DNA of 64,000 bases from Sulfolobales archaeon. Its GTDB lineage: Archaea; Thermoproteota; Thermoprotei_A; Sulfolobales; AG1. Below the pieces are notes generated by a model. That model saw only the letters and a program-made list of their open reading frames with translations, was not told the origin of the DNA and did not search any database. The position numbers and the translations under genes are program-made. The number at the start of each line of letters is the position of its first letter. Within the stretch, counting starts at the first letter, position 1. This document shows positions 10,183 through 50,997 of the stretch, in pieces. Location: NCBI GenBank assembly GCA_038867615.1, contig JAWBYA010000002.1:352001-416000 (forward strand), in the 5' to 3' direction.

Positions 10183-10317
10183 ACTGTTTATCCTTGAATA
10201 TTCATTGAGCTTTCCTTTATAATATCTTATCTAGAACTTCTATCTAACCCGTAGGAGTTTCCCTCACTCCTGCGGGTTATAGATCGCGTTGAACTCAACG
10301 TTACAGAGCGTTCCCAT
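10183..10317 (-). mobile_element. Degenerate dispersed ~130 bp element, copy A (probable IS200/IS605 tnpB 3'-end remnant)
   Basis: Aligns by eye with 17503-17639 and with the reverse complement of 31700-31811. Contains hairpin TAACCCGTAGGAGT/ACTCCTGCGGGTTA (10245-10279). Confidence 0.55.
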
Positions 10318-10412
10318 AAGGTTTACTCTATTTCACTGACACAGTGTTTCATGAGAGATCGCGTATTGACAGCTACATATCGAAGAGAGACTTGGTAGAA
10401 TTAAAGGGGTTT

Positions 10413-10499
10413 TAGAGTTAAAGGGGGTCAGGATATATAATATGGATTGGGAGGGTGCTTGCTAGAGTTAAAGGGGGTCAGGATATATAATATGGATTG
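10413..10499 (+). repeat. Exact 37 bp direct repeat (period 50) covering the 5' end of the methyltransferase gene
   Basis: TAGAGTTAAAGGGGGTCAGGATATATAATATGGATTG at 10413-10449 and 10463-10499; partial third copy at 10396-10410. Confidence 0.95.
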
Positions 10500-11310
10500 T
10501 TTAGAGGGTATGAGAAGTATTCTTAAACCTAGAGAGGTAGATGTTGTTGTTACCTCCCCTCCATACAATATTGGGGTGAAATACGGTAAATACAATGACA
10601 CTATTTCTAGAGATAAATATCTTGACTGGATCGAGCAGGTTGGTGTGGAGATTAAGCGTGTTTTGAAAGATGACGGTTCATTCTTCCTAAACATGGGCTA
10701 TAAGCCTACTGACCCCTGGGTGGCTTGGGAGGTTGCTTTTAGACTTAGGAAGCATTTTGTTCTTCAAAATGTGATAATATGGGTCAAATCAATAGCAATT
10801 CAAAAAGAGGATGTAGGAGACTACCCTAATATCAGAGGAGATATAGCTGTTGGACACTATAAACCAATTCCAGGAAATCGTTTTCTGAACAACAATTTCG
10901 AGTATATTTTCCATTTCACAAAAAACGGCGATGTCGAGCTCGACAGACTGGCTATAGGAGTTCCATACCAGGATAAAACCAATATTGGGAGGTGGAAAAG
11001 TGCAAAACAAGATCTAAGATGTAGAGGGAACACATGGTTCATACCATATGAGACTATAATGTCAAGAGAGAAACAACGCCCCCACCCAGCAACTTTCCCA
11101 GTCAAACTCCCAATGATGTGTATCAAACTACACGGGCTGAAGAAGACTAAGCTTGTCTTAGACCCATTCATGGGAATAGGAAACACAGCTATAGCCAGCA
11201 TAAGGCTTGGAGTAGGCTTCATAGGTTTTGAAATAGACGAAAACTATATAAAAATAGCTGAAAAAAGGATTAAACAGGAGCTACTATACTATGTTAAGGA
11301 AACTCTCTGA
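10459..11310 (+). CDS. Site-specific DNA methyltransferase, beta class (N4-C/N6-A)
   Basis: Motif IV TSPPY is N-terminal; HPATFP and motif I LDPFMGIG are C-terminal. TTG 10459 follows a GGAGGGTG SD-like sequence. Confidence 0.95.
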
Positions 11311-11884
11311 TGATATTCTCCTTTTTGTAGAGATTTGGATTATTAGTGTTAAATTCGTTTTTCAATGTTACCCTAACTTTAGACAGGTCGACTATCTTAA
11401 AACCTAACACTTTTTTATCTCTATGAATAAAGCTTACCAGAACATGACTAGCATCTTTAGTAATCTTAGCATGCTCTGTAGGTTCATAGTAAAAGGATCT
11501 AAGGTTACTGCTCAGTTCTTCTACGCTAACAAACTTTACTTCAATGTAATAGGATTTACCGCTCCTCTCTATCAATATATCAGGATAACCGGCTATCTTC
11601 GATTCTGGTATAACTCCGTGTAGTCTATTTCTAAGTTCTTTCTCTAATTTATTACTTATCTCGTTTGGTCTCAACTTAGAAAAATTCTGGGTCTTAGCCC
11701 ATTCTAAAACTTCTTTAGAAGCGTTAAAAATCTCATCTATAACATTCTTATCAGCTTCTGAAATTGGATACACTTTACAGCCTGTAGTGACCTCGATTAC
11801 TTTTGAAAACGGTATATTTCTTAGCTTCTTTTTAAGAAACTCTGCATATTTCTCGATATCTTCCTGAGGCACGCGGCGTGTCAT
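11294..11884 (-). CDS. Putative type II restriction endonuclease (PD-(D/E)xK)
   Basis: GYPDILIE...YYIEVK motif. Convergent with and overlapping the MTase; shares its AT-rich composition. Confidence 0.75.
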
Positions 11885-11962
11885 ATTTCAACACCTTACT
11901 TAAAAGTACAAAGACATGGTTTAATGTTTAATAGCCTCCAAGACTAACAATATCCTGGCTAT

Positions 11963-12922
11963 ATGGTGAACAAACATATGCCGACTTCAGGGAAAACGCC
12001 TCTCGTCTTTCTAGCATCTGTTCTTCTGAATGCCGCCCAAGCAGCTGTTAAGCTGGCAGCCTTTATCATAGTAGGTTCTCTAGCAATCTATGCCGAGACA
12101 CTCCACTCGGTGAGCGATGTTATTAACAGCTTTATACTATACCTAGCATCATATATAATTGTTAATAAGAAACCCTCGCCAAAATACCCCTTCGGCTTTG
12201 GTAGGTTTCCCTATATAGCTAGCATAATCTCGATCTCGATCCTGGTAGGAGCTATAGCGAACAACATACTAACCCAGGCTTATGAGGCGCTCCATGAGGG
12301 AGGAAGGCTATATGGAGATGTGATCAGCGGAGCTTATCTACTAGCTATAGCGACATTCATGGATGTAGGTATACTACTCTTCATATTTATGGCGAGAGAT
12401 GCCTGGAGGAACCCATCGTCTAAGATGAGACCCTTATTCATGGCACTCATCCTTGAGGACTTATTCTCGTTTAGCGGGAACGCCATTGCTCTTGCCTCAC
12501 TATATATGATTGGGATAACTAGTATAGCAGATGTTATAGCATCTATAGTGATCGTCGCTATAATAATCATGGCATCTGCATATGTTATCTACAAAAACAT
12601 AGAGATCCTTATCGGAAGATCCGCTCCCAGAGATGTGATGCTCAAGATACTCAACAGAATATCAAAGATCTCTGATGTTGTCGATATAGACGACCTTAAG
12701 AGCTATGTATTAACCCCAGATAACATTGTGATAATGGCAACAATAGGTGTCGACCCGAGGAAGAGCATAGGCGATCTCGAAGCACTGAGGGAGAGAATAA
12801 TAAGGGAGATAACCAGCATCGACCCGAGAATCAAGAACGTGATTATCCAGTTCTCAAGCGAGCCTATAGATGACCGTGATAGGGATAAGATATACAGGGA
12901 AGTAAGCTCAATGGATGAATAG
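11963..12922 (+). CDS. Cation diffusion facilitator family transporter
   Basis: GSLAIYAETLHSVSD and KPSPKYPFGFGR motifs, ~6 TMs and a C-terminal cytoplasmic domain. Confidence 0.9.
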   Translation: MVNKHMPTSGKTPLVFLASVLLNAAQAAVKLAAFIIVGSLAIYAETLHSVSDVINSFILYLASYIIVNKKPSPKYPFGFGRFPYIASIISISILVGAIANNILTQAYEALHEGGRLYGDVISGAYLLAIATFMDVGILLFIFMARDAWRNPSSKMRPLFMALILEDLFSFSGNAIALASLYMIGITSIADVIASIVIVAIIIMASAYVIYKNIEILIGRSAPRDVMLKILNRISKISDVVDIDDLKSYVLTPDNIVIMATIGVDPRKSIGDLEALRERIIREITSIDPRIKNVIIQFSSEPIDDRDRDKIYREVSSMDE

Positions 12923-13245
12923 ATCTTAATTTATTTCAAGCGCCTCTAAAACAAACAGTGTAATAGCTATTTAGGATCTGTAAATAGATAATGGAGACCA
13001 TTAGATCCGAAGACTTATGTGCTATACCGTAATCAAAATAACCACCGCCCCGCCTATAGTAGCTTGATACACAAAACTTACAATAGCCTGTAGTAGTTTT
13101 TAAATATTTTATCTTATAATACCCTAATATAATAGCCTAAGGGAAAAATACTTTGATCTATGAAATCTTAATGACTCTATGACGCAAAACCAAGATCCAT
13201 GGTTAGAGGTTTTTATTACTAGGCATAACTATATTTAGATAAGCC

Positions 13246-13881
13246 ATGTTCTTAAAACCACATGAGGGTTTAGTCAAGATCTATGGGTCTAGAAAGCTTT
13301 TCCTAATATGGTGGCCTTTCACAATAGTTAATTTTAATACGTGTGAAAACAACTACCTCGTAGATCTTTTGGTGGCCTCTGAGATCACGGACCCCCTACC
13401 CCTGATCCTCACCATGAGGAGGTATAGGGATAAGCGTCCTATTGAACCCTCGCCATCTGTAGAGGCACCAATACTGATCCCAAGATCTGTTGGGCCTAAC
13501 ACCATAATGGAGCTGATCTATAAGATCAAGAAAGGAATCGAGATGACAAAGGATAAGGATACCTCTCAGAGTTCTCGGCCTGTTAGGAGTTATAGGTATC
13601 AGATGTTTTCTAAGAGACCAAGTACGCTTGAAGAGGCTATAGCTAACCCTGTCTCCAGAGGAATCCTCTCTGAGATCTTGTCATCAATATGCATTAGTAG
13701 CAATAACGTTAGGATCACATCATATAATCCGATACACGTTTTAGTAGGTATCAGTAAAGACATGAAAGAATTTAGCCTTTTCATGGATAAGAAGATCAGG
13801 AGTATTAACCACGAAATATACGTGTTAACCAACGAACATGTTAAAGACCTTATAGAGAAATATATGAAGTTGAACATCTAA
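13246..13881 (+). CDS. Hypothetical protein
   Basis: 211 aa ATG ORF filling an otherwise empty gap; no recognised motif. Confidence 0.6.
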   Translation: MFLKPHEGLVKIYGSRKLFLIWWPFTIVNFNTCENNYLVDLLVASEITDPLPLILTMRRYRDKRPIEPSPSVEAPILIPRSVGPNTIMELIYKIKKGIEMTKDKDTSQSSRPVRSYRYQMFSKRPSTLEEAIANPVSRGILSEILSSICISSNNVRITSYNPIHVLVGISKDMKEFSLFMDKKIRSINHEIYVLTNEHVKDLIEKYMKLNI

Positions 13882-13932
13882 AACCAGTTGTGTTGTAAAT
13901 AAGAAGCCCAGCAACCGCAAACTCAAAGAGGA

Positions 13933-13980
13933 TCAGCACTCAAGACCATGCTCATCACTCACATCTCCCGAGCTCATCAC
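13933..13980 (-). ncRNA. Box C/D methylation-guide sRNA
   Basis: Minus strand reads GTGATGA(C)-GCTCGGGAGAT-GTGA(D')-GTGATGA(C')-GCATGGTCTTGAGTG-CTGA(D), ~48 nt and intergenic. TTTAA box lies ~25-30 nt upstream. Confidence 0.88.
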
Positions 13981-14214
13981 TCACCATATATAATAATCTG
14001 CTCCCTTAAATCCAGGGGTTTAGGGTGCTTATTATAGCACTTACCAGGACTGGGCAGCAATAAGCAGATCTCTAGGATATAGAGGAGAGTTAACCACTAA
14101 AAACGATAATAGCCTCTTTCCCATTTTAAATGAAAGAGAATAGTAAGCTATAAGCGATCATGGTAGATGACTAGGATCTCTTTCCACACGGCCCCAAGAA
14201 TAGGGATTTAAGCG

Positions 14215-26791: not shown

Positions 26792-27985
26792 ATACTGGTA
26801 TTCGCACTCGTGAAAGGAGTTCCAGCGAACACAGCAAGGGTTGTGACTGTAGGCGGTATCCTGAGGAGGGAGGAGATGGATATAGTTCTGAATCCTTATG
26901 ATAGGAAAACAATCGAGGCTGCTGATTATATGAGGAGAAGGGTTGGGGGAAAGCTTGTGGCAATGTCTATGGGTCCCCACCCAAAGATCATACCTATAAT
27001 GAGAGAGATCTTCGATGCAGAGGTTTCTGGAATAGATGAGGCATATATATTAAGCGACAAGAGAATGGCTGGTGCTGATACATGGGCTACATCATATACG
27101 CTCTCTAGAGGGATCTTAAAAGTATTATCTATACATAGAGAAGCGGTTGAGATGCTGGCTAACGCCATAGAATCTGGCGAGGCTATAGATAAGGTTGAGG
27201 CCCTAGCAACAGATCTATATAGGAGGAACCTTATACCCAACAAGATCTATAGTGATAAGCCATCAATAAGGGATACCCTTATTAATATGCTTAGAGAGGG
27301 AAAGATCTCTAGGAGCGATGCTGTAGAGCTCCTCAAGGAGGAGGCGAAGAGAGTTACAACGAACTTCGTTATTTTCTGTGGGATGAAAGCAGCTGATGGA
27401 GAGACTGGTAACGTTGGCCCCCAGGTTGCTGAGGCCCTTTCACAGGAGCTTGGGCTCACAATACCCCATGCGTCCTTTGTGGTTGATTATGAGTATATCG
27501 GTGAGAGGAACTCTCTCCTAGTTAAGAGGAGGCTCATAAACGTCATGCAGATCATAGAGTTAGATCTCCCGTCTGTTCTAACAATACATGTAGACTACTC
27601 AGCACCGCCTGTACCTCTCTCTGGCAGGAGAGCTTCTCTTATGAATTCATATAGGGGCAAAAACACCAATATAACTATATGGTCTGCTGACGATATAAAG
27701 GCTGATCCAAGATATATAGGACTTGCTGGATCGCCAACCGTGGTTGGCCCAGGTATTGATATTGGTAGACCTCATGTTAGAAAGATTGTTGGATTATCTA
27801 TCATAGCTGCCAAGGATATCGATAAGATCAGCTATGGTGATAAGACCTATGGTCCCTTCAAAAAAGGAGATCTTCTTGACAGCCTGCCCGAGGATCTTAA
27901 GAGGGATCTAGCAGCAAAGGGGCTGGCTAAGACCTTTGATTACGAGGATCTTGCTGAAGAGATCATAAACATATTGAGGGGGTAG
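26792..27985 (+). CDS. fixA: Electron transfer flavoprotein beta subunit (FixA-like) with helical insertion
   Basis: ILVFALVKGVP, NPYD, SMGP, GADTWAT, DGETGNVGP and GLAGSPT. Start uncertain (non-canonical codon or GTG 26810). Confidence 0.88.
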   Translation: MLVFALVKGVPANTARVVTVGGILRREEMDIVLNPYDRKTIEAADYMRRRVGGKLVAMSMGPHPKIIPIMREIFDAEVSGIDEAYILSDKRMAGADTWATSYTLSRGILKVLSIHREAVEMLANAIESGEAIDKVEALATDLYRRNLIPNKIYSDKPSIRDTLINMLREGKISRSDAVELLKEEAKRVTTNFVIFCGMKAADGETGNVGPQVAEALSQELGLTIPHASFVVDYEYIGERNSLLVKRRLINVMQIIELDLPSVLTIHVDYSAPPVPLSGRRASLMNSYRGKNTNITIWSADDIKADPRYIGLAGSPTVVGPGIDIGRPHVRKIVGLSIIAAKDIDKISYGDKTYGPFKKGDLLDSLPEDLKRDLAAKGLAKTFDYEDLAEEIINILRG

Positions 27986-27993
27986 ATGGTTCT

Positions 27994-29145
27994 ATGCAGC
28001 CGCAAAACCGGCAGGCACCGACTCTCAACATGCTTCCATCAACTCCAGATATAGAGAGCTATAGGGATGTCTGGACATTCGTCGAGATCTTTAGAGGAGA
28101 ACTGATAAGCTATAGCCTTGAGGGGATAGCTGCTGCTAAAAAGATAGCTTCTAAGGTTGGCATGAAAGTAGGGGCTCTCGTAGCTGGCGATAAAGTTAGC
28201 GATGATATTGCTAAAACACTGATAGAACACGGCGCAGACTATGTAGTTGCTGTAGAACACCAATACCTAGCTGATTACGAGCCCCTCGCCTATACCGAGG
28301 CTTTGGAAGAGATTGTGAGGCTTAGGAAGCCGTGGGCTCTTATATTTATGGCCGATGAGGTGGGCAGAGATCTAGCCCCAAGACTTGCCTACAGGCTTGT
28401 CACAGGGCTTGCTACAGATAATATTGATTTCGATGTCGAGGACTTTTTCCACGGACTCTTGAAAGAGAAGTTCTCAAACATACTGGCTCAGATAAGGCCT
28501 GACTTTGCTACAAGGATAGCTAAGATATATACGCCGAGACATAGACCCCAGATAGCGTCTCTCCGACCGGGCTCTTTCAAACCACTCCAGAGAGATCCAT
28601 CTAGGGTTGGGGATGTATATAGATACACACCAGCACTTAAAAATTACCAGAAGAAAGTAAGGATCGTGGACTACGAGAAGATCGAGGATAGAGGCGCTGA
28701 GCTCCTAAGCGCGAAGTTGATAGTGGGTCTAGGGCTAGGGATCTTGAGGGATGCCGAGGGAAACGCCAAGAACCCTCTAGAGGCTGTCGACATGGCTAAA
28801 AAGATCCTAGATCTTGTCAGAAGAAAACTCGGTGTGGAGACAGCACTGGGAGCTTCTAGAGCACTTATACATGCAGATGTAAAGGAGCTGAGGGAGATCA
28901 TAACACACGATATACAGATCGGACAGACCGGAAAGACAGTATCGCCCAAGGTATATATAGCTGCTGGTATAAGTGGTGCGATACAACATAGAGTAGGGAT
29001 CCTGAGGGCCGGCAGTGTGGTTGCCATAAATATAGACTCCAGAGCACCGATACACGAGATAGCTCACTACTCAATAATAGAAGACCTATATAGAGCCTTA
29101 CCTAAGCTTTACGAGGCGTTGCAGAAAAAGCTTGAGAGTAGGTGA
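27994..29145 (+). CDS. fixB: Electron transfer flavoprotein alpha subunit (FixB-like)
   Basis: GRDLAPRLA, GASRA, QIGQTGKTVSP, GISGAIQH and AINID..API motifs. Confidence 0.93.
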   Translation: MQPQNRQAPTLNMLPSTPDIESYRDVWTFVEIFRGELISYSLEGIAAAKKIASKVGMKVGALVAGDKVSDDIAKTLIEHGADYVVAVEHQYLADYEPLAYTEALEEIVRLRKPWALIFMADEVGRDLAPRLAYRLVTGLATDNIDFDVEDFFHGLLKEKFSNILAQIRPDFATRIAKIYTPRHRPQIASLRPGSFKPLQRDPSRVGDVYRYTPALKNYQKKVRIVDYEKIEDRGAELLSAKLIVGLGLGILRDAEGNAKNPLEAVDMAKKILDLVRRKLGVETALGASRALIHADVKELREIITHDIQIGQTGKTVSPKVYIAAGISGAIQHRVGILRAGSVVAINIDSRAPIHEIAHYSIIEDLYRALPKLYEALQKKLESR

Positions 29146-30869
29146 GGATAGTGGTAGATAAGCACGATGTAATAGTAGTAGGGGCAGGACTGGCCGGGAG
29201 TGCTGCTGCATATTATCTAGCTAAGAGGGGCTATGATGTACTCTTGGTTGAAAAAGCCAAAGTACCTGGGCAGAGGAACGTTACTGGAGGCATTCTCTAC
29301 GGATCCTTTATCCCGGGGTATGGATTAATAGACCTCATACCGGATTTTGAAAGCGAGGCCCCCCTCGAGAGGAAGGTGGTAAAATACAGGCTTGCAATGA
29401 TATCAAGCCCCACATACCCCGCTGAGTATAGATATAGGGCTGTCGCTCCTAACGAGAGATCATATATGGTTCTAGAGATAGATGAGACGTCAGTGCTCGA
29501 TAGATTTATCCATAGAGGTATATCCACAGGGCATGACTACACAGTGATCAGGGCTAAGTTTGATAGATGGTTCGCAAGAAAAGTTGAAGAAGTTGGGGGA
29601 ATTGTGGTCACAGCAACAGCTGTCGAGGATCTCGTTATCGAGGATGAAAAGGTAGTTGGTATAAGAACAAATAAGGAGGAGATACACGCGGATCTCGTTA
29701 TCGATGCTAGCGGTATTACAAGCAAGCTCGTAATAAAGGCTGGGCTTAGAAAACCCCTAGATCCTAGCCAGGTTTACCATGGTATCAAACAGGTTTACCA
29801 ACTGAGTGAGGATGAAATTAACAAGAGGTTCGGGCTTAAAAACGGTGAGGGGATGGCTATAGCTATAATGGGTGATTTCCTCAGAGGAATGATCGGTGGT
29901 GGCTTCATATATACAAACAGGGATACGATCTCGGTAGGCCTTGTTGTTACAATGAGCAGCATGCTCAAGAGTCTCAGAAAAAACGTCGAAGAGATTGGAA
30001 AGCCGTTGGACGTGCTAGAGGATATGATCTCGCACCCGTATGTGAGCAGATTTATAGATGGTGCAAAGCTTGTTGAGTACTCAGCACACAACATTCCCAA
30101 AGGACCCATGACTTTTCTAGAAAAGCCTTTGAGAAGCGGCTTTCTAGTAGCTGGGGATGCTTTGGGAGCGTTTGTAAAGATAGGAGGTCTTATAGACGGT
30201 ATGAGGAGAGCCATAGCTACAGGGATCATGGCTGCCCAGACCTATATATATGCTAGGAAGAACAACGACTTCAGCGAAAAGACTCTCTCAATATACCTAG
30301 ATCTCCTCCAACCGATCTATAGGGATATCAGGAGGGCTGCTAGAAACAGCACCCTATCCGAGAGCAGGATTCTGTATGGTCCCGGGTATAGGCTTCTCCT
30401 AAGATTTCTCGGGAAAAAGGTCTTGGGAACCATAGGGGAGAGGATAAATAATAAGGATGCCTTACAGAAGATCCAGGAGAGAACAGGGCTCCTAGTATAT
30501 GAGGAGGATAAGAACTACTCACACATAAAGATAGACTACGCCGCAGCTAATAGAGATCCGTATAAGCTCTGGGTCCCAGCATGCCCAACCAACTGCTACA
30601 CATTATCGGTTCCCGGAAAGGGTATATTCGCCTCATATAGGGATCTATATAAACATAACCTAGAGAGGCTTAAAAAAACAGGATCTAGTGGTAAGGATCT
30701 CGAGAAAAAAGCCCTCGAAGAGACATGGAGAGACGTTGCTAGAGCTGAGATCAGGTTTGATCATGTTGCGTGCGTCTCATGCGGAACATGCTGGGTGATC
30801 GGTCCTCCAGATGTCATTTCATTCAACCCAGAGAGAAGCGGACATGGAGTTAAGTTTAGATACGGCTAG
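29142..30869 (+). CDS. fixC: FixC-like FAD-dependent ETF:quinone oxidoreductase fused to C-terminal FixX-like ferredoxin
   Basis: VVGAGLAG, GGGFIYTN and VAGDA motifs; C-terminal ACPTNCY, CVSCGTC and GHGVKFRYG. Confidence 0.88.
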   Translation: MRIVVDKHDVIVVGAGLAGSAAAYYLAKRGYDVLLVEKAKVPGQRNVTGGILYGSFIPGYGLIDLIPDFESEAPLERKVVKYRLAMISSPTYPAEYRYRAVAPNERSYMVLEIDETSVLDRFIHRGISTGHDYTVIRAKFDRWFARKVEEVGGIVVTATAVEDLVIEDEKVVGIRTNKEEIHADLVIDASGITSKLVIKAGLRKPLDPSQVYHGIKQVYQLSEDEINKRFGLKNGEGMAIAIMGDFLRGMIGGGFIYTNRDTISVGLVVTMSSMLKSLRKNVEEIGKPLDVLEDMISHPYVSRFIDGAKLVEYSAHNIPKGPMTFLEKPLRSGFLVAGDALGAFVKIGGLIDGMRRAIATGIMAAQTYIYARKNNDFSEKTLSIYLDLLQPIYRDIRRAARNSTLSESRILYGPGYRLLLRFLGKKVLGTIGERINNKDALQKIQERTGLLVYEEDKNYSHIKIDYAAANRDPYKLWVPACPTNCYTLSVPGKGIFASYRDLYKHNLERLKKTGSSGKDLEKKALEETWRDVARAEIRFDHVACVSCGTCWVIGPPDVISFNPERSGHGVKFRYG

Positions 30870-42024: not shown

Positions 42025-42918
42025 GTGGAGGAAGCCATCTATGCTGAGCTTGATAGGCTGAGAGAGGATCTCAGGATTCTTATGGAGAGGAGAGATAAAG
42101 CTGGAGAGAGTTTTTTAAAACTGGTTGAGGAGAGAAGGAGACTCATATCAGAGATCAGGGAACTAAGAGGGAGTCTAAGAGAGGTTAGAGAAAGCAAAGC
42201 CAGGCTTATAGAGATGGTTAGAGATCTCAGGGAAAGACTTAAACAGGCTAGGGAGAAGCTGAGAAACAGTGTCGCCAGGCTTGAAGAGATTAGGAGAACA
42301 TACCCGGATCTTGAGAGGATAGCAGGGGTCTCTATATCTTCCCTTAAGAGGAGAATAGATTCTCTTGAATGGAAGATCATAACAGGACAGGTAGATCCTG
42401 AAGAAGAGGAGGAGATCATTAGACAGGTAATGAGGCTTGAAACACAGCTTGACAAGATCTTGAAGGCTAAGAATGTTAAAAACATGGTCACCGAGATAAG
42501 GGCTGAGATAGCATCCTCAAGGCTAGAGATAGACGATATAAGGAGATCCATCGCCGAGGTCTCACGCGGCATTAACGAGATCAAGAAAAAGGAGAGCGAG
42601 CTTATAGAAGAGATAGGGAAGAGAAGTGCAAGAATAGATGAGATCTCAAAGGAGCTTGACAGGCTAGCCACAGATAGATCGAAAATCTCTGAAGAGATCA
42701 GGAGAAAGAGGGAAGAGATACAAGCGCTTAGAAGCAGGCTAAGAGAGATCAGGACAGGACAGGACAAAAAATCCAGGACTGAGCGGCTGGAGATCCTGAA
42801 AAAGAAGGCTGAAGAAAAGCTATCCTCTGGAGAGAGGTTAACATTCGAAGAGCTACAGGCGCTCTATGGAGGGCTAGACGGAGAGAGCAATGGTACGAGT
42901 GGTGGAGAAAACCCCTGA
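42025..42918 (+). CDS. Archaeal coiled-coil protein (COG1340-like)
   Basis: Long coiled coil with LEWKIIT...EEE and C-terminal KLSSGERLTFEELQ; overlaps the DUF373 gene. Confidence 0.8.
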   Translation: MEEAIYAELDRLREDLRILMERRDKAGESFLKLVEERRRLISEIRELRGSLREVRESKARLIEMVRDLRERLKQAREKLRNSVARLEEIRRTYPDLERIAGVSISSLKRRIDSLEWKIITGQVDPEEEEEIIRQVMRLETQLDKILKAKNVKNMVTEIRAEIASSRLEIDDIRRSIAEVSRGINEIKKKESELIEEIGKRSARIDEISKELDRLATDRSKISEEIRRKREEIQALRSRLREIRTGQDKKSRTERLEILKKKAEEKLSSGERLTFEELQALYGGLDGESNGTSGGENP

Positions 42919-44011
42919 AAAAATATTGATAGTCGTTATAGATTATGACGACGATCTAGGAAGGGCAGGGATAGATACCCCGGTAGTTGGTGTAAAGAGA
43001 GTATCCGAAACAGCTTTTAACTATGCCCTAGAGAGACCAGAAGATCCGGATGTAAATGCTCTCTTCACAGCTATAAAGATATATAGAGACATGGTGGATC
43101 AGGGATATAGGGTTGAGGTGGCAGCGATCTCAGGCGATCAGAGGGGAGGGTTGAAAGCTGTTGAGAGGATCAGGAGCCAGCTAATAGATGTGATCAATCT
43201 AACAGATTCTAAATCAGTTATAGTGGTATCAGACGGGGGCGAGGATGAGAAGGTTATCCCCGTAATAGAATCCATAGTACCGATCTTCTATGTCAAGACA
43301 GTTGTTATAGAGCAGGCAAGGGCTGTTGAGCAAACCTATATTCTTATCTGGAGATATGTTAAAAAAGTACTCAGCGAGCCAAGACTCTCGAGGCTCGTTA
43401 TAGGATACCCAGGACTTCTTCTTATACTCGTAGGCCTCATGCTTTTCTTCGATCTGCTCCAACAAGCGTTAATGGTATCGCTGATCTTCCTCGGCATCGT
43501 AATGATAATCAAGGGCTTTAACCTAGAGGATTCTTTGATAAACATGTGGAAGAGAAATCCCAGCGGAACCATACTAGCCGCGGTGGGGGCTATCGTTATG
43601 GGCATAGCTATAATGCTTACATGGTTCAGCCTGGCCCAGGCCTTGCAACACCCCCAGAGGGATTTCAAGATCGTTGGTAATATTCTTGAAAATGTCTCAT
43701 GGCTATACGGCCTATCAATATCAGTCCTTCTCCTAGGACCCTTGATAAAAAGAATCCTCTCCAGATCTATTAGGGCGTGGAGATATGCAGTCATCTTAAC
43801 AATGGTTGCTATGTTCACATTACTACTAAGAGACATAGGATTAGTGCTCCTCTCACTCCCTGACACGGCCACTGCTAGGGATATCGTTGATGCTATGTGG
43901 AGCAGCAACACATTCCAGGGGCTTATAACAATAGTTGTGACAGTAATAATAGCGTCCTCCTTGCTCCAACTCGTAGAGGTCACAATAACCAGGAGGAGAA
44001 AAAGCAAATAA
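42890..44011 (+). CDS. DUF373 family membrane protein
   Basis: IDYDDDLGR, PEDPDVN, VSDG.EDE and VVIEQ motifs followed by multiple TMs. Confidence 0.88.
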   Translation: MVRVVEKTPEKILIVVIDYDDDLGRAGIDTPVVGVKRVSETAFNYALERPEDPDVNALFTAIKIYRDMVDQGYRVEVAAISGDQRGGLKAVERIRSQLIDVINLTDSKSVIVVSDGGEDEKVIPVIESIVPIFYVKTVVIEQARAVEQTYILIWRYVKKVLSEPRLSRLVIGYPGLLLILVGLMLFFDLLQQALMVSLIFLGIVMIIKGFNLEDSLINMWKRNPSGTILAAVGAIVMGIAIMLTWFSLAQALQHPQRDFKIVGNILENVSWLYGLSISVLLLGPLIKRILSRSIRAWRYAVILTMVAMFTLLLRDIGLVLLSLPDTATARDIVDAMWSSNTFQGLITIVVTVIIASSLLQLVEVTITRRRKSK

Positions 44012-44252
44012 CCAATGATAATAGGTTACAGAGCTTCCACATGTTTATCTGGGCGATTTAAGTACCGATCAGCAAGAGTCCCCGCTATAAATGATAACTA
44101 AAACTGTTAGAGAAACAGGATCAGGCTATCATCGAAATTCATTATCGGATAGAACTAGAACCAGGTATACTGCACAATTACCATTCCTTTGTATCTTTAT
44201 CGAGCATAGCGATGGTATTCTGCTAAAAGCAGGAGGTTTCTAAGCTTTAGGT

Positions 44253-45125
44253 TTAGCATGGGCTTTCGTGTGCGGCAAGGGATTTTGGAGCTTTCAAGCC
44301 TTTTCCAGCTATAGCTAATGCTATTATTGCTGATATGTACGGCATTGCTAGGGCTAGCTGATACGGGATCTGGATCAGGCCTGAGGCCTGCATTCTTAAT
44401 TGAACAGCATCGAGAAAACTGAATGCTAGTATAGCTGGTAAGAGCTTCATAGGATTCCAGCCAGAGAGTATTACGAGAACTACGGCTAGATAGCCCCGCC
44501 CAGCCGTCATGTTATCCATATAAAGCCCTGAGAACCCTATGCTTAAAAGAGCTCCTGAGAACCCTGCAAACCCGCCCTCGATGAGCAGTAAATAGAGCCT
44601 GAGCCTCGAGACTCTAATTCCTAGCCTACATGCCCTCTCAGGATCCTCTCCAGACGCTCTTATCAAGATACCAAGCCCGGATCTATGTAGAAGGAGCCAT
44701 ATAGCTAGGGGCATTGCAAAAGTGGCAATGGAGAAGAAACCAAGATCCCCTAGAGTAGTGGTAAGCTGAGGAGGCTTCCCAGCACCTATGAAGAGCCTAT
44801 AGAGATACGCTGTAAGCCCTATGGTTACTATGCTTATTGAGAGCCCGGAGACCATCTGATCAAGTCTCATATTGATTGCAAGTATAGCCAAGACCCCAGA
44901 GATTATGATGCCAGAGAGAACCCCTAGGAGAACTCCGATGAGAGGGTTACCGCTATACAGAGTCGCTAGATAGGCTGAGAATGCGCCGAAAAGCATAGCG
45001 CCCTCAATAGCTAAGTTGATCATACCGCTCCTCTGGACTAAAAGCTCTATCGATGCTACCAAGAGTAATGGGGCTGCTATCACTATTGTGCTGCTTAGGA
45101 GCCCTGCCAATAGCCCTTGTTCCAT
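44253..45125 (-). CDS. Nucleoside-type ABC transporter permease
   Basis: RSGMINLAIEG, RASGEDP, MTAGRGY and LAMPY motifs. Confidence 0.9.
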   Translation of the reverse strand: MEQGLLAGLLSSTIVIAAPLLLVASIELLVQRSGMINLAIEGAMLFGAFSAYLATLYSGNPLIGVLLGVLSGIIISGVLAILAINMRLDQMVSGLSISIVTIGLTAYLYRLFIGAGKPPQLTTTLGDLGFFSIATFAMPLAIWLLLHRSGLGILIRASGEDPERACRLGIRVSRLRLYLLLIEGGFAGFSGALLSIGFSGLYMDNMTAGRGYLAVVLVILSGWNPMKLLPAILAFSFLDAVQLRMQASGLIQIPYQLALAMPYISAIIALAIAGKGLKAPKSLAAHESPC

Positions 45126-45129
45126 AAGA

Positions 45130-46206
45130 TCAGCCCCTGATCTTGATGATAATTAATGCCATGATTAGAAGAAAACCTTGAAGTATATACATCATGCCAG
45201 AAGGTATGCCTGTAATCATCTGGGCAACAGTAACACCGTTGGTGACACCCCCAAGACCTATGGAGGCTATTAGGAGCATAGGGGCACTAGGCCCTGAAAC
45301 CATAGCCACAGGAATTGCTAGATAGCCATATCCCTGGGATATTGTTGGAAGAGCTCTATGATGGACTCCCAGCACCTCAAGCGAGCCTGCAACGCCTGCC
45401 ATGAATCCGCTGAAGATCATTGATAGGATCACTATGAGACCTGAGTTGAGCTTGAAGTATCTTGCTTGAACCTCACCGGCACCAATAATCCTGAGCCTTA
45501 GTCCAATGAGACTCCTCCCAAATAATATGTGGATTGCTAAGGGTAAGAGTGCGAGAGAGATCAGTATCCCAGCATGAATCCTTGTCCCAGGAAAGAGAGG
45601 ATCTAGCCATAGATCCCTTCCAACGAGATCAGTCTCAGGGAAAAGAGAAGCTTTACTCTTAAGGGGACCGTTAAGCAGGTAGCTAGCCATATATATAGCT
45701 ATATAGTTCATCATGAGTGTCGTGAGCACCTCATTAGATCCTCTATAGACTCTCAGAAGCCCTGGTATTAGAGCCCAAACAAGACCGCATAGACCCCCAA
45801 ATAATACTGCTATAAGAATCCCAAAAGATCCCCAACCTGATAGATGAATACCTATCCATGCAGTGCCAATAGCGCCAAAGATCAACTGGCCTTCAGAGCC
45901 TATATTCCAGACTTTGGCCATATAGGGGATGGCGAGACCCGATGCTATAATCAGGATTGGAGAGGCTCTTAAAAGAGTCTCAGGAATCTGTTGCGGTGAG
46001 AAGCCTCCCCAGAGGATCCAGTACAGCACGTTAAGAGGATTGGCGCCTGTTATTAACGCTAATAACCCTACAATAGCAGCCAAGATTATTAAGAAAAGGA
46101 GTGCTAGGAGAAAATTGTTGAGCATACTGTGTAATTTGATCCTCTTGGTTGATCTTAACAATATAGTTTCCCCACTGCTAGATCCCCTGTACCTGGCTCT
46201 TTTCAA
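45130..46206 (-). CDS. Nucleoside-type ABC transporter permease
   Basis: WNIGSEGQ, NEVLTTLMMNY and GYGY motifs. Confidence 0.9.
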   Translation of the reverse strand: MKRARYRGSSSGETILLRSTKRIKLHSMLNNFLLALLFLIILAAIVGLLALITGANPLNVLYWILWGGFSPQQIPETLLRASPILIIASGLAIPYMAKVWNIGSEGQLIFGAIGTAWIGIHLSGWGSFGILIAVLFGGLCGLVWALIPGLLRVYRGSNEVLTTLMMNYIAIYMASYLLNGPLKSKASLFPETDLVGRDLWLDPLFPGTRIHAGILISLALLPLAIHILFGRSLIGLRLRIIGAGEVQARYFKLNSGLIVILSMIFSGFMAGVAGSLEVLGVHHRALPTISQGYGYLAIPVAMVSGPSAPMLLIASIGLGGVTNGVTVAQMITGIPSGMMYILQGFLLIMALIIIKIRG

Positions 46207-47650
46207 GCCCCACTAAAGCCCCCTCTCTCAAGAAAAATACCCTGCACCTCAGCTCCTTTAGATCCTCTGGGTCGCTTGTAATTATCACAACAGCTGAGCC
46301 CCTCATAGCTAGATCCTTTATTAATTCTTTGAGCAACTCTATAGAGCTTATATCCAGATTGGCTAATGGCTCCTCAAATATTATGAGATCTGGTTTTCTA
46401 AGTGCTTCTCTCCAGATCACAAGCCTTCTAGCATTGCCTCCCGAGAGGCTTCTCATAGAACTCCAGATCGATGGTACCTTGATGCTCGACTCTCTTATCA
46501 AGGACTCAGCATATGATCTAAGATCCTTGTGACTTATGAGCACATCCCCGATCCTTAAGGGTTTTTCAAGCAATCTCCTCATAGACGCATTAATAGCTAT
46601 GCTCATGCTCATAACAGAACCACGCTCAGTATCGCTTGGTACATAGCTGATCCGAGATCCCGGTTTAACCCAGATCTCTCCAGATAGCGGGCTTCTAATA
46701 CCATATATGGTCTCAGCGATCTCCCTAACACCCCTACCATCAAGCGATACTATAGCCACAACCTCTCTCCTAGAAACTTTGAAGCTAGCGCCTCTCATCA
46801 CATAGATACCTCTATCATCAATCACCGTGAGATCCTTCGCACTAAGTATCTCTTCACCATTACCAATAGAAGAATCAGTGATCCCTGCTACAGATCCTTG
46901 TCCATCATTGTTAATGACATGCGGAAAGAATTCTTCGAAGCACTCTCCGCACGACCCAACTTCAGCAACCTTTAACCCTCTCTTGAGTATTGTGAACCTA
47001 TCGCCAAAGCCTATTACCTCTCTGATCTTGTGGTTTGTCATAACTACTGCCTTCCCATCCATAGAGACCTTTCTAAGGATTCTTAGGATCTCCTTGGAGA
47101 TCTCGGGGCTTAAGAGAGAGGTAGGCTCGTCGAGAAGGATAACCCTCCTCCCAACAGCCACAGCTATTAGAACCTCGAGAAGCTGCCTCTCACTAGGAGA
47201 CAGGTTTGACACCTTTACACTAGGATCTATCTCCCTAAGCCCCATCTTACCCAACGTATTTTCGACATTCTTAAGAATCCCTCGAGGATTCATTCTACAA
47301 GATCTCGAGATGATCGATATATTCTCCTCTACAGTTAGTTCTCCTATCAATGATGAACCCTGGTAGGCCATAGATATGCCTTTCTCCAGCGCTACTCTGG
47401 GCGATTTGAGAAATACCTTCTCACCATCAATCCTGATCTCCCCGGCTGTTGGTCTCATATACCCGCTTAGTATTTTGAGAAGCGTTGTCTTCCCAGCCCC
47501 ATTCTCGCCAAGGATCACATGGATTTCTCCTTCGTATATCGAGAGATCCACGCCAGATAATGCTGTATAGCCTCCCGGATAGACCGCCCAGATATCTCTG
47601 GCTTCTATTATGGGCGCCTTAGCCTCGCTCATATAGATCCCTAGCTCCAC
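46178..47650 (-). CDS. Tandem-domain ABC ATPase (CUT2/NupA type)
   Basis: GENGAGKT, LLDEPT and LSGGN motifs; two NBD halves. Confidence 0.92.
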   Translation of the reverse strand: MELGIYMSEAKAPIIEARDIWAVYPGGYTALSGVDLSIYEGEIHVILGENGAGKTTLLKILSGYMRPTAGEIRIDGEKVFLKSPRVALEKGISMAYQGSSLIGELTVEENISIISRSCRMNPRGILKNVENTLGKMGLREIDPSVKVSNLSPSERQLLEVLIAVAVGRRVILLDEPTSLLSPEISKEILRILRKVSMDGKAVVMTNHKIREVIGFGDRFTILKRGLKVAEVGSCGECFEEFFPHVINNDGQGSVAGITDSSIGNGEEILSAKDLTVIDDRGIYVMRGASFKVSRREVVAIVSLDGRGVREIAETIYGIRSPLSGEIWVKPGSRISYVPSDTERGSVMSMSIAINASMRRLLEKPLRIGDVLISHKDLRSYAESLIRESSIKVPSIWSSMRSLSGGNARRLVIWREALRKPDLIIFEEPLANLDISSIELLKELIKDLAMRGSAVVIITSDPEDLKELRCRVFFLREGALVGLEKSQVQGI

Positions 47651-48708
47651 CTAGAATCGTCCCAATTCTCCATAATAGGAACCTTGAGCACTCCTTCAAG
47701 TATATCCTTCTTAGCCCCCTCGACATGGTTAACTATCTCGGGAAACTCTCTGGCAAAACGGGTGTTCCACATGAGCTTAGCCCAACCCTCCTTCATGCCC
47801 CACTCAAGGATCCCGCTGGTCCATGACCCGTTCTTTCTCAGCTCAACGAGGTGTTTTATAAAGGGTCTCAGATCCCATACAATGCTGGCAACAAGGGTAT
47901 TTGGCGCTATATTACTGTAATCTATCACCGTTCCAAATGTATATATCACTCTACCCTGTTTATACATGTCTTCAGCAGCGTCTGTTGCGCCGTAGCTCTC
48001 TGAGTATATTATATCAGCCCCAAGATCTATAAGGGCTTTTGCAGCCTCCTTAGCCTTTACAGGATCATACCAGCTCTCTATAAAGACAGCTCTTATCTTC
48101 ACAGAGGGATTCACAGACTTTGCACCATATGCAAAGGCATTTATAAGCCTAACAACATCCGGAACCGGATAGCTTGCAACAACGCCTATGACATTGCTCT
48201 TGGTAAGCTTGCCAGCCGCTATACCCGCGAGATAAGCAGCTTCTTGGATCCAATAGTCGTATACAACAACATTAGACGGATACTGAATATTAGTGGGGCC
48301 CGAGCCTTGTGCAAAGAAGACATTGGGGAATTCTCTTGCAACCTTGATTGTTGTCTGGTAATACCCCCAACTGTGGGGTATTATTATGTCGTAGCCCGCT
48401 TGGATATACTGTCTTATAACCCTCTCAACGTCAGATTCGGAGACCCTCTCGACATAGCTATACTCGATTCCAAGGTTATCCCTAGCCCATTTCATCGCCT
48501 CATGCATAGCCTGGTTCCATGGCTCTTCAATTGGTGTCACATAAATCACAGCCACCCTTATCTTGCTTGGTTGCGCAGGTGTCTGGGTAGTATTAACCCC
48601 AACCGCGATACCCCCAGGGCTTTTTAATAAATAAACCGAGGCTATGGCACTTACAGCGATTATGATTACCACAATCAGAGCTAGGATCGATGTTCTCATG
48701 CTATCCAC
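47641..48708 (-). CDS. BMP family substrate-binding protein (purine nucleoside type)
   Basis: N-terminal anchor, YLAGIAAG.LTKS, INAF..GA..VNP and WYDP.KAKEAA. Confidence 0.9.
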   Translation of the reverse strand: MDSMRTSILALIVVIIIAVSAIASVYLLKSPGGIAVGVNTTQTPAQPSKIRVAVIYVTPIEEPWNQAMHEAMKWARDNLGIEYSYVERVSESDVERVIRQYIQAGYDIIIPHSWGYYQTTIKVAREFPNVFFAQGSGPTNIQYPSNVVVYDYWIQEAAYLAGIAAGKLTKSNVIGVVASYPVPDVVRLINAFAYGAKSVNPSVKIRAVFIESWYDPVKAKEAAKALIDLGADIIYSESYGATDAAEDMYKQGRVIYTFGTVIDYSNIAPNTLVASIVWDLRPFIKHLVELRKNGSWTSGILEWGMKEGWAKLMWNTRFAREFPEIVNHVEGAKKDILEGVLKVPIMENWDDSRWS

Positions 48709-49680
48709 CTACGCTGTACCAAAAGTTATTCCAAGCTCTCTAAGCCACATCCTATATGCTATTGACACTCTATCTGATCTTAAGTGAAGCTCTGCCTGGA
48801 GATCTAGAGGTAATAGCTCGGGTCTCTGGGACTCGACTACAGGAACATCTTGAGATACTATTTTGTCTTGGAACCTTCTGATCTCATCATCAGGGATCTC
48901 GTGTGCATAGTTCATCGCGATTATCATCCAACCAATGCTCTCAGTCTGTTCTACCGGAGTCACTGTATAGAATATAGAGAACCTCTTACCACCAGATTCC
49001 TTAGTAAAATATGCGACGAGAGGCCTTAGAACCATATAGGTATAGGTCTCCCACTTACCAACACCTGTACCGTCTGGATTTGGCTGCCAAACCCTTATAT
49101 CCTTTGCAATAATACCCTCCTCGCTCTTTATCACATCATAATCCGGAATCTCAGGTTTAGACGGATCCCCAAGAATCCCTGTGTGGACGAAGGGGAAATG
49201 GGCTACATCGAGGAAGTTCTCTATAGCTCTGGGACCGCTGCTTTTTATTCTATAAGGTCCGCAATAAATCTTTCTGAAAGAAGGATCCGACCACTCAGGA
49301 AACCGAGGTACTTCCCTGCTAGGATTCCCTAGCGAGACCCATATATACCCGTACTTTTCAACAGCCCTATACACACGAACCCTCGCCTTCTCAGGAGGTT
49401 TTTGATCCGGGTGTGCCGGTATCCTTACACATCTACCGCTTGTATCATACTCCCAACCGTGGTATGGGCATACGAGCTTGTCGTCACTTACCCATCCAAG
49501 CGAGAGCCTGGCACCTCTATGTATACAAAGATCTTGCCAAGCCATCGCATCCCCATTGCGAGATCTCCACACAACAAGATCTTCTCCAAGAACCCTAGCC
49601 CTGAGGATCCCACCTACAGGGAGATCGGAGGTTCTAGCCACAACAAACCAGTCATTGACGAGCACCGGATCCCGGATCAA
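48709..49680 (-). CDS. Rieske non-heme iron oxygenase alpha subunit (VanA/NdmA-like demethylase family)
   Basis: Rieske CIHRG...CPYHG; mononuclear Fe site ENFLDVAHFPFVH plus C-terminal QD..VVESQ.P. Confidence 0.92.
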   Translation of the reverse strand: MIRDPVLVNDWFVVARTSDLPVGGILRARVLGEDLVVWRSRNGDAMAWQDLCIHRGARLSLGWVSDDKLVCPYHGWEYDTSGRCVRIPAHPDQKPPEKARVRVYRAVEKYGYIWVSLGNPSREVPRFPEWSDPSFRKIYCGPYRIKSSGPRAIENFLDVAHFPFVHTGILGDPSKPEIPDYDVIKSEEGIIAKDIRVWQPNPDGTGVGKWETYTYMVLRPLVAYFTKESGGKRFSIFYTVTPVEQTESIGWMIIAMNYAHEIPDDEIRRFQDKIVSQDVPVVESQRPELLPLDLQAELHLRSDRVSIAYRMWLRELGITFGTA

Positions 49681-50025
49681 GTTTATCCCTCACTCAACAT
49701 TCATGTAAAAAGCTTATAAGCATAATACTTAGTTGAATCTTGTTTTTAAATAAAATATGTTAAAAATCAGTTATCCCTGATGCATGGAAACCGTGTCCAG
49801 AAATCATAGATCCTGCGACGAGAATTAGCCCCACAATAATCTATGAAAGATAGAAAGAGATACTGCTTTGAAGTGTTTAAATAACCTGGTGTTTTGGCCT
49901 CACAGACCATGATGCTAGATATTTCATGGTTTAAACACCCAGAAGAACCTCTCTATAACTCTGGGTAAGTCAAAAATATGCTCCAACTCATAAGAAAAAT
50001 ATTTCCCCGGTATAGAAATCTCTTT

Positions 50026-50120
50026 CTGTTGAGCTTAATAATATCCATGATTCAGCAGGTGATAAAGAAACTCTCCAGGCTTATCTCGTGATGTCTAAAC
50101 CCCTATACATACAACAATCA
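50026..50120 (+). mobile_element. Dispersed element, copy D (highly decayed)
   Basis: CTGTTGAGCT..CCATGATTCAGCAGGTGATAAAGA..AAACCCCTATAC resembles copies B and C. Confidence 0.35.
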
Positions 50121-50148
50121 ACAATAGTTAGTAAATAGCAAAATGTAG

Positions 50149-50997
50149 TTATGGAGGTTCTACTCTATAGAATCTGGTTATATTTTCTACATGTATCTTA
50201 TATACTGCTTCTTCGTTGAGGAAACCTTCTTTAGTTGCTTTTAATGTGTTTTCAGAGATCTCCCATGGGTAAAGGACTTTTCCTGGTCTTGCTGGGTCAT
50301 CTATATAGTCGCTTTCGAACATATAGAATCCTTGGTATTTGCTTGCAATCTGGATCACCTGGTAGATCGCTGGCACGGTAGCCGGGATCCCCATTGATAT
50401 AGCGTGTTCTAGAAGCCCTGGTTTTGCGTGGTGCATGGCAACCCTATCCTTACTAATCCCTATTCTTCTGATCCTGTCCTCGATATCCTTGGCAGTGATC
50501 CACCCGCCTTCTTCTAGGTGTAGGTGCACAATAGCCCCAAGATCCTTAGCCTTTGTTAAGGCATGGTCGAGAACCATTTCGGCGAGAACCACATAGTGGG
50601 GTTTAACCTGGTAGTGGGGTCTCCCAACCTCGGCGATTCCGTGTAAAAGTCCTTTCTCTATATAGGTGCATGCGAGATCTATGATCTTGATGGAATATCT
50701 ATAGGCATCCTCGGGCTTCATCCCAAGCCTATCTATCATCTTATCAATCATAGCTGGGTGGTATCCGCCCAGACATGCCACCCTTAACCCTGCCTCTCTA
50801 GCAGCTCTGCACTCGGATATAACCAACTCTATGGATCTTTCAAAACCTTCTGGGCTTGGGTTAAGCCCAAGGCTGGTCGGTGGTAGAGAGACAAGTGCTA
50901 TGAACCAGCCCCCGGATTCTCTGAACCTCTCGGAAACCGTTTTCGCTCCTAACCCCTTGAGAGGGTTTGTGTGGGCATGGGCGTCTGCAAATATCAA
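50149..50997 (-). CDS. TatD-related metal-dependent hydrolase
   Basis: DAHAH, GYHPA, EVGRPHY, HLHLE, HHA and ESDYIDDP.RPG motifs. Confidence 0.9.
   Translation of the reverse strand: MIFADAHAHTNPLKGLGAKTVSERFRESGGWFIALVSLPPTSLGLNPSPEGFERSIELVISECRAAREAGLRVACLGGYHPAMIDKMIDRLGMKPEDAYRYSIKIIDLACTYIEKGLLHGIAEVGRPHYQVKPHYVVLAEMVLDHALTKAKDLGAIVHLHLEEGGWITAKDIEDRIRRIGISKDRVAMHHAKPGLLEHAISMGIPATVPAIYQVIQIASKYQGFYMFESDYIDDPARPGKVLYPWEISENTLKATKEGFLNEEAVYKIHVENITRFYRVEPP

Follow-up and report, generated by a model that had tools for sequence, protein, structure and literature searches.

A mobile cassette joining a bacterial-type Rieske oxygenase to an archaeal importer in a Sulfolobales archaeon, with a possible role in methylpurine demethylation

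What does a heat-loving, oxygen-respiring archaeon import and oxidise with a five-gene unit in which a Rieske oxygenase of bacterial type is followed by the genes of an ATP-binding cassette (ABC) importer? The question is raised by a stretch of 64,000 nucleotides (nt) from Sulfolobales archaeon (GenBank assembly GCA_038867615.1, contig JAWBYA010000002.1, positions 352,001 to 416,000 of the forward strand), hereafter the window, in which the unit occupies positions 44253-49680. Any breakdown of DNA and RNA sets methylated purines free, and to our knowledge few routes are known for the free methylated bases, namely the deamination of N6-methyladenine or N6-methyladenosine and the caffeine demethylases. 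A previous reading of the window, made without database searches (the sequence-only reading), had proposed that the unit imports and demethylates methylated purines or modified nucleosides. Here, the unit is considered likely to handle an imported purine-type base. The best single reading of its function, to which we assign a probability of roughly 0.45, is that a methylated purine base, probably a methyladenine, is imported and then N-demethylated with the use of O2.

Five intact open reading frames (ORFs), identified from the ORF list of the window and with Pfam, run head to tail on the minus strand. The first (48709-49680) encodes the alpha subunit alone of a Rieske non-haem-iron oxygenase of 323 amino acids (aa) with a TTG start, placed in the SxtT/GxtA-NdmA/B branch of the VanA-like family. 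It is followed by a BMP-family substrate-binding protein (47641-48708, 355 aa) with a binding site of the purine-base type and an N-terminal hydrophobic anchor (a hydrophobic stretch read from the sequence at residues 8-26), by an ABC ATPase with two fused nucleotide-binding domains (46178-47650, 490 aa) and by two ABC permeases (45130-46206 and, as the final gene of the unit, 44253-45125), the first of which possibly starts downstream of the listed TTG. Pfam E-values were 9e-25 for Rieske, 7e-23 for VanA_C, 5e-41 for Bmp, 2e-39 for ABC_tran (in two stretches) and 1e-28 for BPD_transp_2 in each permease. A BMP binding protein, one double-domain ATPase and two BPD_transp_2 permeases make up an importer of the BMP (PnrA-like), CUT2-like ABC type. 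No beta-subunit gene was found in the operon or its flanks in the Pfam scan.

The genes are tightly packed. The oxygenase stop codon TAG (48711-48709) is directly followed by the GTG of the BMP gene at 48708. The BMP gene may equally well start at the ATG that lies 9 nt downstream (48699), so that the spacing between the two genes is 0-9 nt. The BMP and ATPase genes overlap by 10 nt, the ATPase and first permease genes by as much as 29 nt, according to where translation truly begins, and a gap of 4 nt separates the two permeases. The identical five genes in identical order recur in genomes G001-G003 and in metagenome loci L103 and L104, so that the arrangement is not a matter of chance. Ahead of the oxygenase, an A/T-rich non-coding leader of 468 bp on the same strand (49681-50148) contains TTATAAG and TTTATTTAAAAA boxes, as well as GAGGG immediately before the oxygenase TTG, and is presumably the promoter site of the unit.

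The unit was horizontally acquired and is mobile. It lies, together with the leader, in an inserted cassette of ~6.07 kb (44082-50148) between a DUF373 gene (42890-44011, plus strand) and a TatD gene (50149-50997, minus strand). In genome G003 this site is empty: the DUF373 gene is directly followed by the TatD gene, the flanking proteins are 88-99% identical to those of the window, and the blastn homology of the empty site stops at window position 44081 and restarts at 50149. In G002 the operon occupies the same site as in the window. A divergent copy of the cassette was found in G003 ~116 kb from the empty site on the same contig, its proteins being 82% (Rieske), 76% (BMP), 49% (ATPase) and 60% and 53% (permeases) identical to those of the window. 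This copy is located within an 11.7-kb segment bracketed by ~0.9-kb direct repeats that are 80-92% identical (L183, 3365-4288 and 15113-15970), with an IS605-type OrfB/TnpB gene nearby (L183, 619-1890). On metagenome contig L103, an 83% version stands in a third genomic context beside a TnpB fragment. The horizontal acquisition suspected from the sequence alone is borne out by the empty site and by the copies at three genomic places, and the cassette moves as one piece from site to site among aerobic archaea that are close relatives.

In a set of 41 related genomes, the only full-length homologues of the oxygenase were those of four genomes of the same genus (G000-G003) and of G025 (45% identity). 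A matching BMP orthologue is present in the same four genomes, and all other BMP genes of the order are at most 41% identical. At the edges of the window insert no notable terminal repeats were found, only short matches at chance level, and its G+C content of 0.45-0.46 shows no contrast with the window. Small coiled-coil DUF7310-like ORFs were observed in each of the direct repeats around the G003 copy. A decayed copy was also seen in G004 (L006, 1501-2624), where the first 26 oxygenase codons run out of frame into the middle part of the ATPase gene, the deletion having removed most of the oxygenase, the whole BMP gene and the start of the ATPase.

The operon is also a chimera of a bacterial-type enzyme and an archaeal importer. 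A quick IQ-TREE phylogeny of 84 oxygenase family members was calculated under LG+G4, with a midpoint root for drawing only; ten rows were omitted, comprising four duplicate loci of G000-G003 (L088-L091) and six short fragments (<290 aa or <250 residues of query cover). The four-genome group of the window (Shimodaira-Hasegawa-like approximate likelihood ratio test, SH-aLRT, 99) falls on the 44-row side of a split supported at 99. The other members of this side are bacterial (19 rows of Chloroflexota, 6 of Acidobacteriota and others), together with a Nitrososphaerota group that stands apart and the G025 copy on a long branch, and the place of the window's group within it is not settled by the tree. 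The nearest named relatives of the BMP protein are archaeal and span 43-62% identity, among them Candidatus Terraquivivens (62%), Desulfurococcales (59%), Aigarchaeota (57%) and Korarchaeota (53%), and the first named bacterial matches are at 40% or less. From this bacterial-side oxygenase and archaeal-side BMP protein it follows that an enzyme gene of bacterial type became attached to an archaeal importer operon and that the combined unit then moved.

Among solved structures, the BMP binding protein matches AtzT (6pi5, E 8e-48) and a Brucella protein (3s99, E 4e-47) best. According to text excerpted from PMC6834077, AtzT holds guanine and adenine (dissociation constants 110 nM and 2.5 uM, respectively) between Y45 and W194, with contributions from S97, E165, N218 and N220, and also binds hydroxyatrazine and ammeline; adenine was modelled in the site of 3s99. 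W64, S113, D184 and W213 of the window protein correspond to AtzT Y45, S97, E165 and W194, so that the aromatic sandwich, the serine and an acidic residue (Asp for Glu) are all kept. The two other BMP paralogues of the genome lack the residues of this purine-base motif. Unlike the window protein with its archaeal N-terminal membrane anchor, AtzT carries a bacterial signal. With a base-binder motif in which the asparagine positions of AtzT have changed (see below), the ligand is probably a free base of purine type, which need not be guanine or adenine. The link to purines made in the sequence-only reading thus held, given the AtzT/3s99-like BMP protein and the family members in PucR, xanthine dehydrogenase and uricase clusters described below. 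The best NCBIfam models for the four transporter parts are all named 'putative B6 ABC transporter'; this naming was rejected, since all scores are far under the cut-offs (127/400, 291/670, 146/400 and 110/465 bits).

In the oxygenase, the Rieske ligands C52, H54, C71 and H74 are kept as C52-I-H54 and C71-P-Y-H74, in the CXH...CXXH pattern. Also kept are H161, H166 and D278, which bind the iron, and D158, which bridges the two metal centres; these align with H164, H169, D280 and D161 of SxtT. All eight metal-site residues are invariant in an alignment of 24 oxygenase-family sequences (A1). The five-gene unit, the oxygenase stop abutting the BMP start and the intact metal ligands, all noted previously, are therefore confirmed by the ORFs, Pfam and the alignment.

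A sequence search of the PDB returned SxtDIOX/GxtA (E 4e-81) and SxtT (E 3e-80) over residues 4-322, followed by NdmA (E 6e-48) and NdmB (E 1.5e-38) near full length. NdmA and NdmB, the methylxanthine N1- and N3-demethylases of Pseudomonas putida CBB5 (PDB 6ick, 6icl), resemble the window protein in combining Rieske and VanA_C without a beta subunit and in their metal ligands, and their substrate is a purine. F168 of NdmA, which pi-stacks on caffeine (bioRxiv 10.1101/2021.12.17.472166), corresponds to F156, invariant in the 24-sequence alignment and replaced by Ser in SxtT/GxtA. F174 of NdmA corresponds to F162, and Q271 aligns with N282 of NdmA and matches Q289 of NdmB. Four of the other five mapped NdmA pocket positions differ (F223, L248, V285 and F286 are W210, I236, I274 and V275). 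The NdmA/B pair further differs in its moderate score (167 bits for NdmA), in its tie to a caffeine pathway, whereas the window gene is tied to an importer in a thermophilic archaeon, and in its NdmD-type reductase, of which no counterpart was found. Six of eight NdmA/SxtT-mapped pocket positions are shared between the window oxygenase and the corrinoid-linked oxygenases of L109, L111 and L112.

SxtT and GxtA (SxtDIOX; PDB 6wn3, 6wnc) are the best-scoring solved relatives, of about the same length and with the same ligands, but they are biosynthetic enzymes within a toxin cluster, whereas the window gene stands beside an importer and no sxt genes were found in the loci examined. Q226 and D239 of SxtT hold the guanidinium groups of the toxin (PMC7293229); in the window protein these positions are A223 and I236, and a saxitoxin-like substrate was rejected for this reason. 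The O-demethylases VanA and DdmC, and KshA, share the Rieske domain and the VanA_C C-terminal family, but their significant alignment is confined to the N-terminal ~170 residues (DdmC E 2e-18, KshA E 2e-14), so they are not close relatives.

Judged by these comparisons, the oxygenase is a bacterial-type iron enzyme of a large uncharacterised family: the family search returned 6610 proteins with E <= 0.001 among 7954 candidates, other Rieske proteins included. No NCBIfam equivalog covers it, and the ESM Atlas gives generic cluster names only ('ring-hydroxylating dioxygenase' or 'vanillate demethylase'). No description of the clade was found in the literature searched.

The gene neighbourhoods of relatives were compared at 159 loci, of which 79 came from species genomes (the best 80 stretches of at least 596 confirmed relatives) and 80 from metagenomes (the best 80 of at least 559); L102-L104 and L167 in the metagenome set are close kin of the window itself. 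Genes were counted from tblastn searches in which representative proteins served as queries, with cut-offs of E <= 1e-8 and 50% query cover. In 69 of the 159 loci, the oxygenase has a transporter gene no more than 400 nt away. Adjacent BMP genes were found in 16 loci, NCS2 xanthine/uracil permeases in 4, APC permeases in 6, NMT1-type binding proteins in 2 and a ~490-aa membrane protein with at least 10 helices in 43, which total 71 because some loci hold two kinds. The large subunit of xanthine dehydrogenase was present within 10 of the 159 loci, and a VanB-like reductase was adjacent to the oxygenase in 5 of the 79 loci from genomes, with no such case among the 80 from metagenomes. Like the window unit, most relatives in the clade thus have no reductase next to the oxygenase. 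In Paenibacillaceae the oxygenase is embedded in operons for purine catabolism, with the order PucR-like, amidohydrolase, MobA, XdhC, three xanthine dehydrogenase subunits, BMP, Rieske, (in L065, adenine deaminase), uricase, HIUase and M20. In L049 and L051 it is TetR, Rieske, VanB-like reductase and FAD monooxygenase.

Two themes in these neighbourhoods concern the chemistry, the first of them methyl transfer. Parts of corrinoid methyltransferase systems share the locus with the oxygenase in 7/159 cases, and GcvT-like genes lie near it in three more (L025, L029, L082). The seven consist of five loci with an MtmB-like and a corrinoid protein, one with a corrinoid protein alone, and one (L030) with Pterin_bind and RACo immediately after the oxygenase. 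By their tblastn coordinates, the MtmB-like and corrinoid genes are on the oxygenase strand in L018, L127 and L136. In L109 and L112 the corrinoid gene stands immediately before the oxygenase and the MtmB-like gene on the opposite strand; in L110, a short cut contig, the corrinoid gene alone was seen, again immediately before the oxygenase. The MtmB-like genes beside the oxygenase are full-length and non-pyrrolysine (non-Pyl), and the loci that carry them fall into four groups by MtmB identity (34-43% between groups). Pairs of an O2-sensitive and an O2-dependent demethylase for one substrate are known, for example for glycine betaine; two such enzymes encoded in one operon would be a parallel case. 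In an excerpt of PMC13044021, the sole characterised non-Pyl MtmB homologue is a tetramethylammonium/choline:corrinoid N-methyltransferase, the remaining homologues being of unknown function.

The second theme is adenine. An adenine deaminase gene adjoins the oxygenase in L065 and L109-L112 (the L112 protein matched PDB 3nqb with E 1.6e-70), and genes of the A_deaminase family are present in L011 and L136. The genome of the archaeon encodes an adenine deaminase elsewhere, outside the operon. A Bacillus subtilis protein formerly annotated as adenine deaminase acts on N6-methyladenosine (PMC8643624). The richest 'methylpurine' locus seen was L136, a 14-kb cluster on one strand (5-13960) with, in ascending tblastn coordinates, genes for xanthine dehydrogenase, an A_deaminase-like protein, corrinoid protein, MtmB, Rieske, MtmB, corrinoid protein, ABC ATPase, two permeases, BMP and corrinoid protein.

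The oxygen that such an enzyme requires would be available to the host. Its genome, 94% complete, contains two haem-copper oxidase genes, and no cytochrome bd was found in it. Haem-copper oxidase was detected in 13/41 related genomes, including 6/6 of the genus and all five that hold a full-length oxygenase, and by this gene content the genus is aerobic. O2 use had been called unusual for this lineage, which applies to the order (13/41) but not to the genus (6/6). Four genes of the xanthine dehydrogenase family were also present, and neither uricase nor HIUase was found in the genome, so that salvage or detoxification suits the host better than complete purine catabolism. In three metatranscriptome runs from a related study, 0, 0 and 2 reads fell on 8.7 kb and none on the operon, too few for any inference on expression.

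As for the electrons, the cassette encodes no dedicated reductase or ferredoxin partner; that the operon lacks a reductase was already part of the sequence-only reading and agrees with Pfam on the operon and a domain search of the genome. Two small stand-alone ORFs resembling Rieske ferredoxins occur elsewhere in the genome (contig C1 36983-37315 and contig C7 near 27413-27661), one of them beside dihydrolipoamide dehydrogenase. In the window, a set resembling FixAB/ETF-QO (26810-30869) is made up of two ETF-like genes and the gene of a FAD-dependent oxidoreductase of 575 aa, and could feed or draw electrons from ferredoxin-type carriers. On contig C7 (25628-27661), the small Rieske ferredoxin-like ORF lies together with a glyoxalase/ring-cleaving-dioxygenase-like and a carboxylesterase-like ORF, all named by eye from the sequence.

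The preferred reading, import and N-demethylation of a methylated purine base, would proceed as follows. The membrane-anchored BMP protein of archaeal descent would bind a free purine-type base outside the cell, and the double ATPase and two permeases would import it. In the cytoplasm, the Rieske monooxygenase of bacterial descent, presumably alpha3 without beta, would use O2 and two electrons to hydroxylate an N-methyl group of the base. The hydroxylated methyl group would leave as formaldehyde, and an ordinary purine would be left for deamination or salvage. The likeliest substrate would be a methyladenine, for example N6-methyladenine. Since the cassette brings no reductase of its own, a housekeeping ferredoxin system would have to supply the electrons.

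Several observations weigh against this reading. The top-scoring characterised relatives, SxtT/GxtA (276 bits), are C-H hydroxylases, and the demethylase NdmA reaches 167 bits. The demethylation proposed from the sequence alone is plausible and has gained support from NdmA/B, the closest characterised relatives acting on aromatic substrates, and from the methyl-transfer genes at related loci, but the outcome of the comparison with ring-hydroxylating as opposed to demethylating enzymes is mixed. The guanine-reading N218 and N220 of AtzT are E237 and Y239 in the window BMP protein, so the preferred base probably differs from that of AtzT; these positions are His and Asp in 3s99 and Y-Q-D in the Rieske-linked BMP proteins of Paenibacillus. 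A search of the 94%-complete genome detected no NAD_binding_1 domain of the VanB/FNR type, and no deaminase, one-carbon gene or reductase was found next to the window operon. Loci with a methyl theme number 10/159, a raw count without a background rate that includes close kin (L109/L110/L112; L025/L029), and most of the 159 loci give no hint of the chemistry. In 22 related loci, Rfam at gathering thresholds revealed no xanthine (NMT1-motif) or purine riboswitch; its matches there were tRNAs, 5S rRNA and c-di-AMP and ZTP riboswitches, away from the oxygenase, and in the window one tRNA only. In the literature searched, no paper was found linking a Rieske enzyme with methyladenine or with N6-methyladenine deaminase, and mentions of Rieske enzymes in purine catabolism were of the HpxDE type only.

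A distant archaeal branch (family f13) also tells against demethylation. An oxygenase copy at 40-51% identity was present in 19/44 of its genomes, with an ORF of ~413-420 aa after the oxygenase in 8/16 loci examined; one such ORF, from L192, was searched and proved hydantoinase-like (E 2.6e-50), which fits hydroxylation followed by ring opening better. In this aerobic archaeal family (L188-L201, L005), a divergently placed APC-type permease and Leu instead of Phe at the stacking position were also seen.

These points lead to the main rival, somewhat unlikely in our judgement, in which an HpxD-like ring hydroxylase would act at C2 or C8 of an imported unmethylated purine (hypoxanthine, xanthine, adenine or guanine), as a molybdenum-independent stand-in for or complement to xanthine dehydrogenase. 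HpxDE is described, in excerpts of PMC7373994 and PMC13751858, as a Rieske-type system leading from hypoxanthine through xanthine to urate. HpxD/HpxE of Klebsiella, compared here by description only, shares with the proposed function a Rieske oxygenase working on a purine base in nitrogen scavenging. A VanB-like reductase, as described for HpxE, is adjacent in L049, L051, L053, L062 and L081 (in L049 and L051 it follows the Rieske gene), and this rival accords with the C-H hydroxylase relatives SxtT/GxtA, with the family members in xanthine dehydrogenase, uricase, HIUase and PucR clusters and with the hydantoinase-like gene of f13. The window unit, however, has no reductase partner, and the downstream urate pathway was not found in the genome: with four genes of the xanthine dehydrogenase family but uricase and HIUase not found, urate would be a dead end. 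Purine operons with the family usually hold a complete xanthine dehydrogenase (L059, L065, L069), beside which a second hydroxylase would be redundant, and the repeated linkage to corrinoid and GcvT-type genes would be left unexplained.

The remaining two rivals depart from the purine base itself. That the substrate is another N-heterocycle or a methylated amine (a pyrimidine, pterin, s-triazine, B6 vitamer or quaternary amine), detoxified or fed into metabolism, is unlikely. The B6 model names, the binding of hydroxyatrazine and ammeline by AtzT, the action of the characterised non-Pyl MtmB on tetramethylammonium and choline, and the departure of E237 and Y239 from known purine binders would suit such a substrate, and the APC permeases and the ~490-aa membrane protein give no substrate clue; but the B6 scores fall far short (127 vs 400 and 291 vs 670 bits), the pi-stacking Phe of NdmA is kept, and the repeated linkage to NCS2, PucR, xanthine dehydrogenase, uricase, HIUase, OHCU decarboxylase and adenine deaminase points to purines. 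Very unlikely is the version in which a PnrA/TmpC-type importer brings in modified nucleosides for Rieske demethylation with the help of the IU-type nucleoside hydrolase at 35244, as the sequence-only reading had suggested. The Pfam model is indeed named 'PnrA-like', TmpC (2fqw, E 5e-5) and other nucleoside binders are detectable relatives, and the hydrolase gene is 8 kb away. The purine-base binders nevertheless outscore TmpC by ~40 orders of magnitude and the BMP site has the base-type residues, so that nucleoside import was not upheld. The hydrolase lies outside the cassette in the conserved flank and is equally present (94% identical) in G003, whose site has no operon, so its proposed role was not upheld either.

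Some further observations were made on the relatives and on the window. The ~490-aa protein with at least 10 hydrophobic helices is encoded directly downstream of the oxygenase, mostly in Acidobacteriota-like loci (L024, L041, L042, L044, L047 and 38 metagenome loci, for example L116 9155-10597 and L150 9102-10553); it had no Pfam or NCBIfam match and probably represents a family of transporters, as yet undescribed, that handle the same substrate. Two oxygenase paralogues per locus, reminiscent of the NdmA/NdmB pair with its different positional specificity, are adjacent or nearly so in L018 (7826-9969), L025/L029 and L076 and ~7 kb apart in L087; the L018 pair is flanked by two BMP-type ABC importers, one with a duplicated BMP protein of 682 aa. 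In L105 (649-5630) and L106 (6570-11551), an oxygenase of 61% identity is flanked by a 355-aa ORF without family matches and by a pair of sarcosine-oxidase-alpha-like and DAO-type flavoproteins, which may represent a further context of oxidative N-dealkylation. In the window, positions 10001-14000 have a G+C content of 0.38-0.40, compared with ~0.46 elsewhere, and contain, besides several ORFs that match no family, a gene for an N6/N4 DNA methylase (10447-11310); this region may be an integrated element or a restriction-modification island.

Its function aside, the locus cleanly illustrates the grafting of a gene for a bacterial enzyme onto an importer of archaeal origin. Members of the ~322-aa Rieske clade were found in Chloroflexota, Acidobacteriota, Bacillota, Nitrososphaerota and Thermoproteota. 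It is put forward here, as a tentative possibility, that this clade is an unrecognised O2-dependent demethylase of free N-methylated purine bases, with N6-methyladenine as the leading candidate, and the aerobic counterpart of a corrinoid route in the same operons that would run on non-Pyl MtmB homologues. If so, the two routes would form a widespread 'methylpurine recycling' system, and the orphan MtmB homologues would gain their first substrate class. A large uncharacterised oxygenase family would gain a function, and the archaeon would provide a thermostable Rieske demethylase with a matching binding protein for biocatalysis and sensing.

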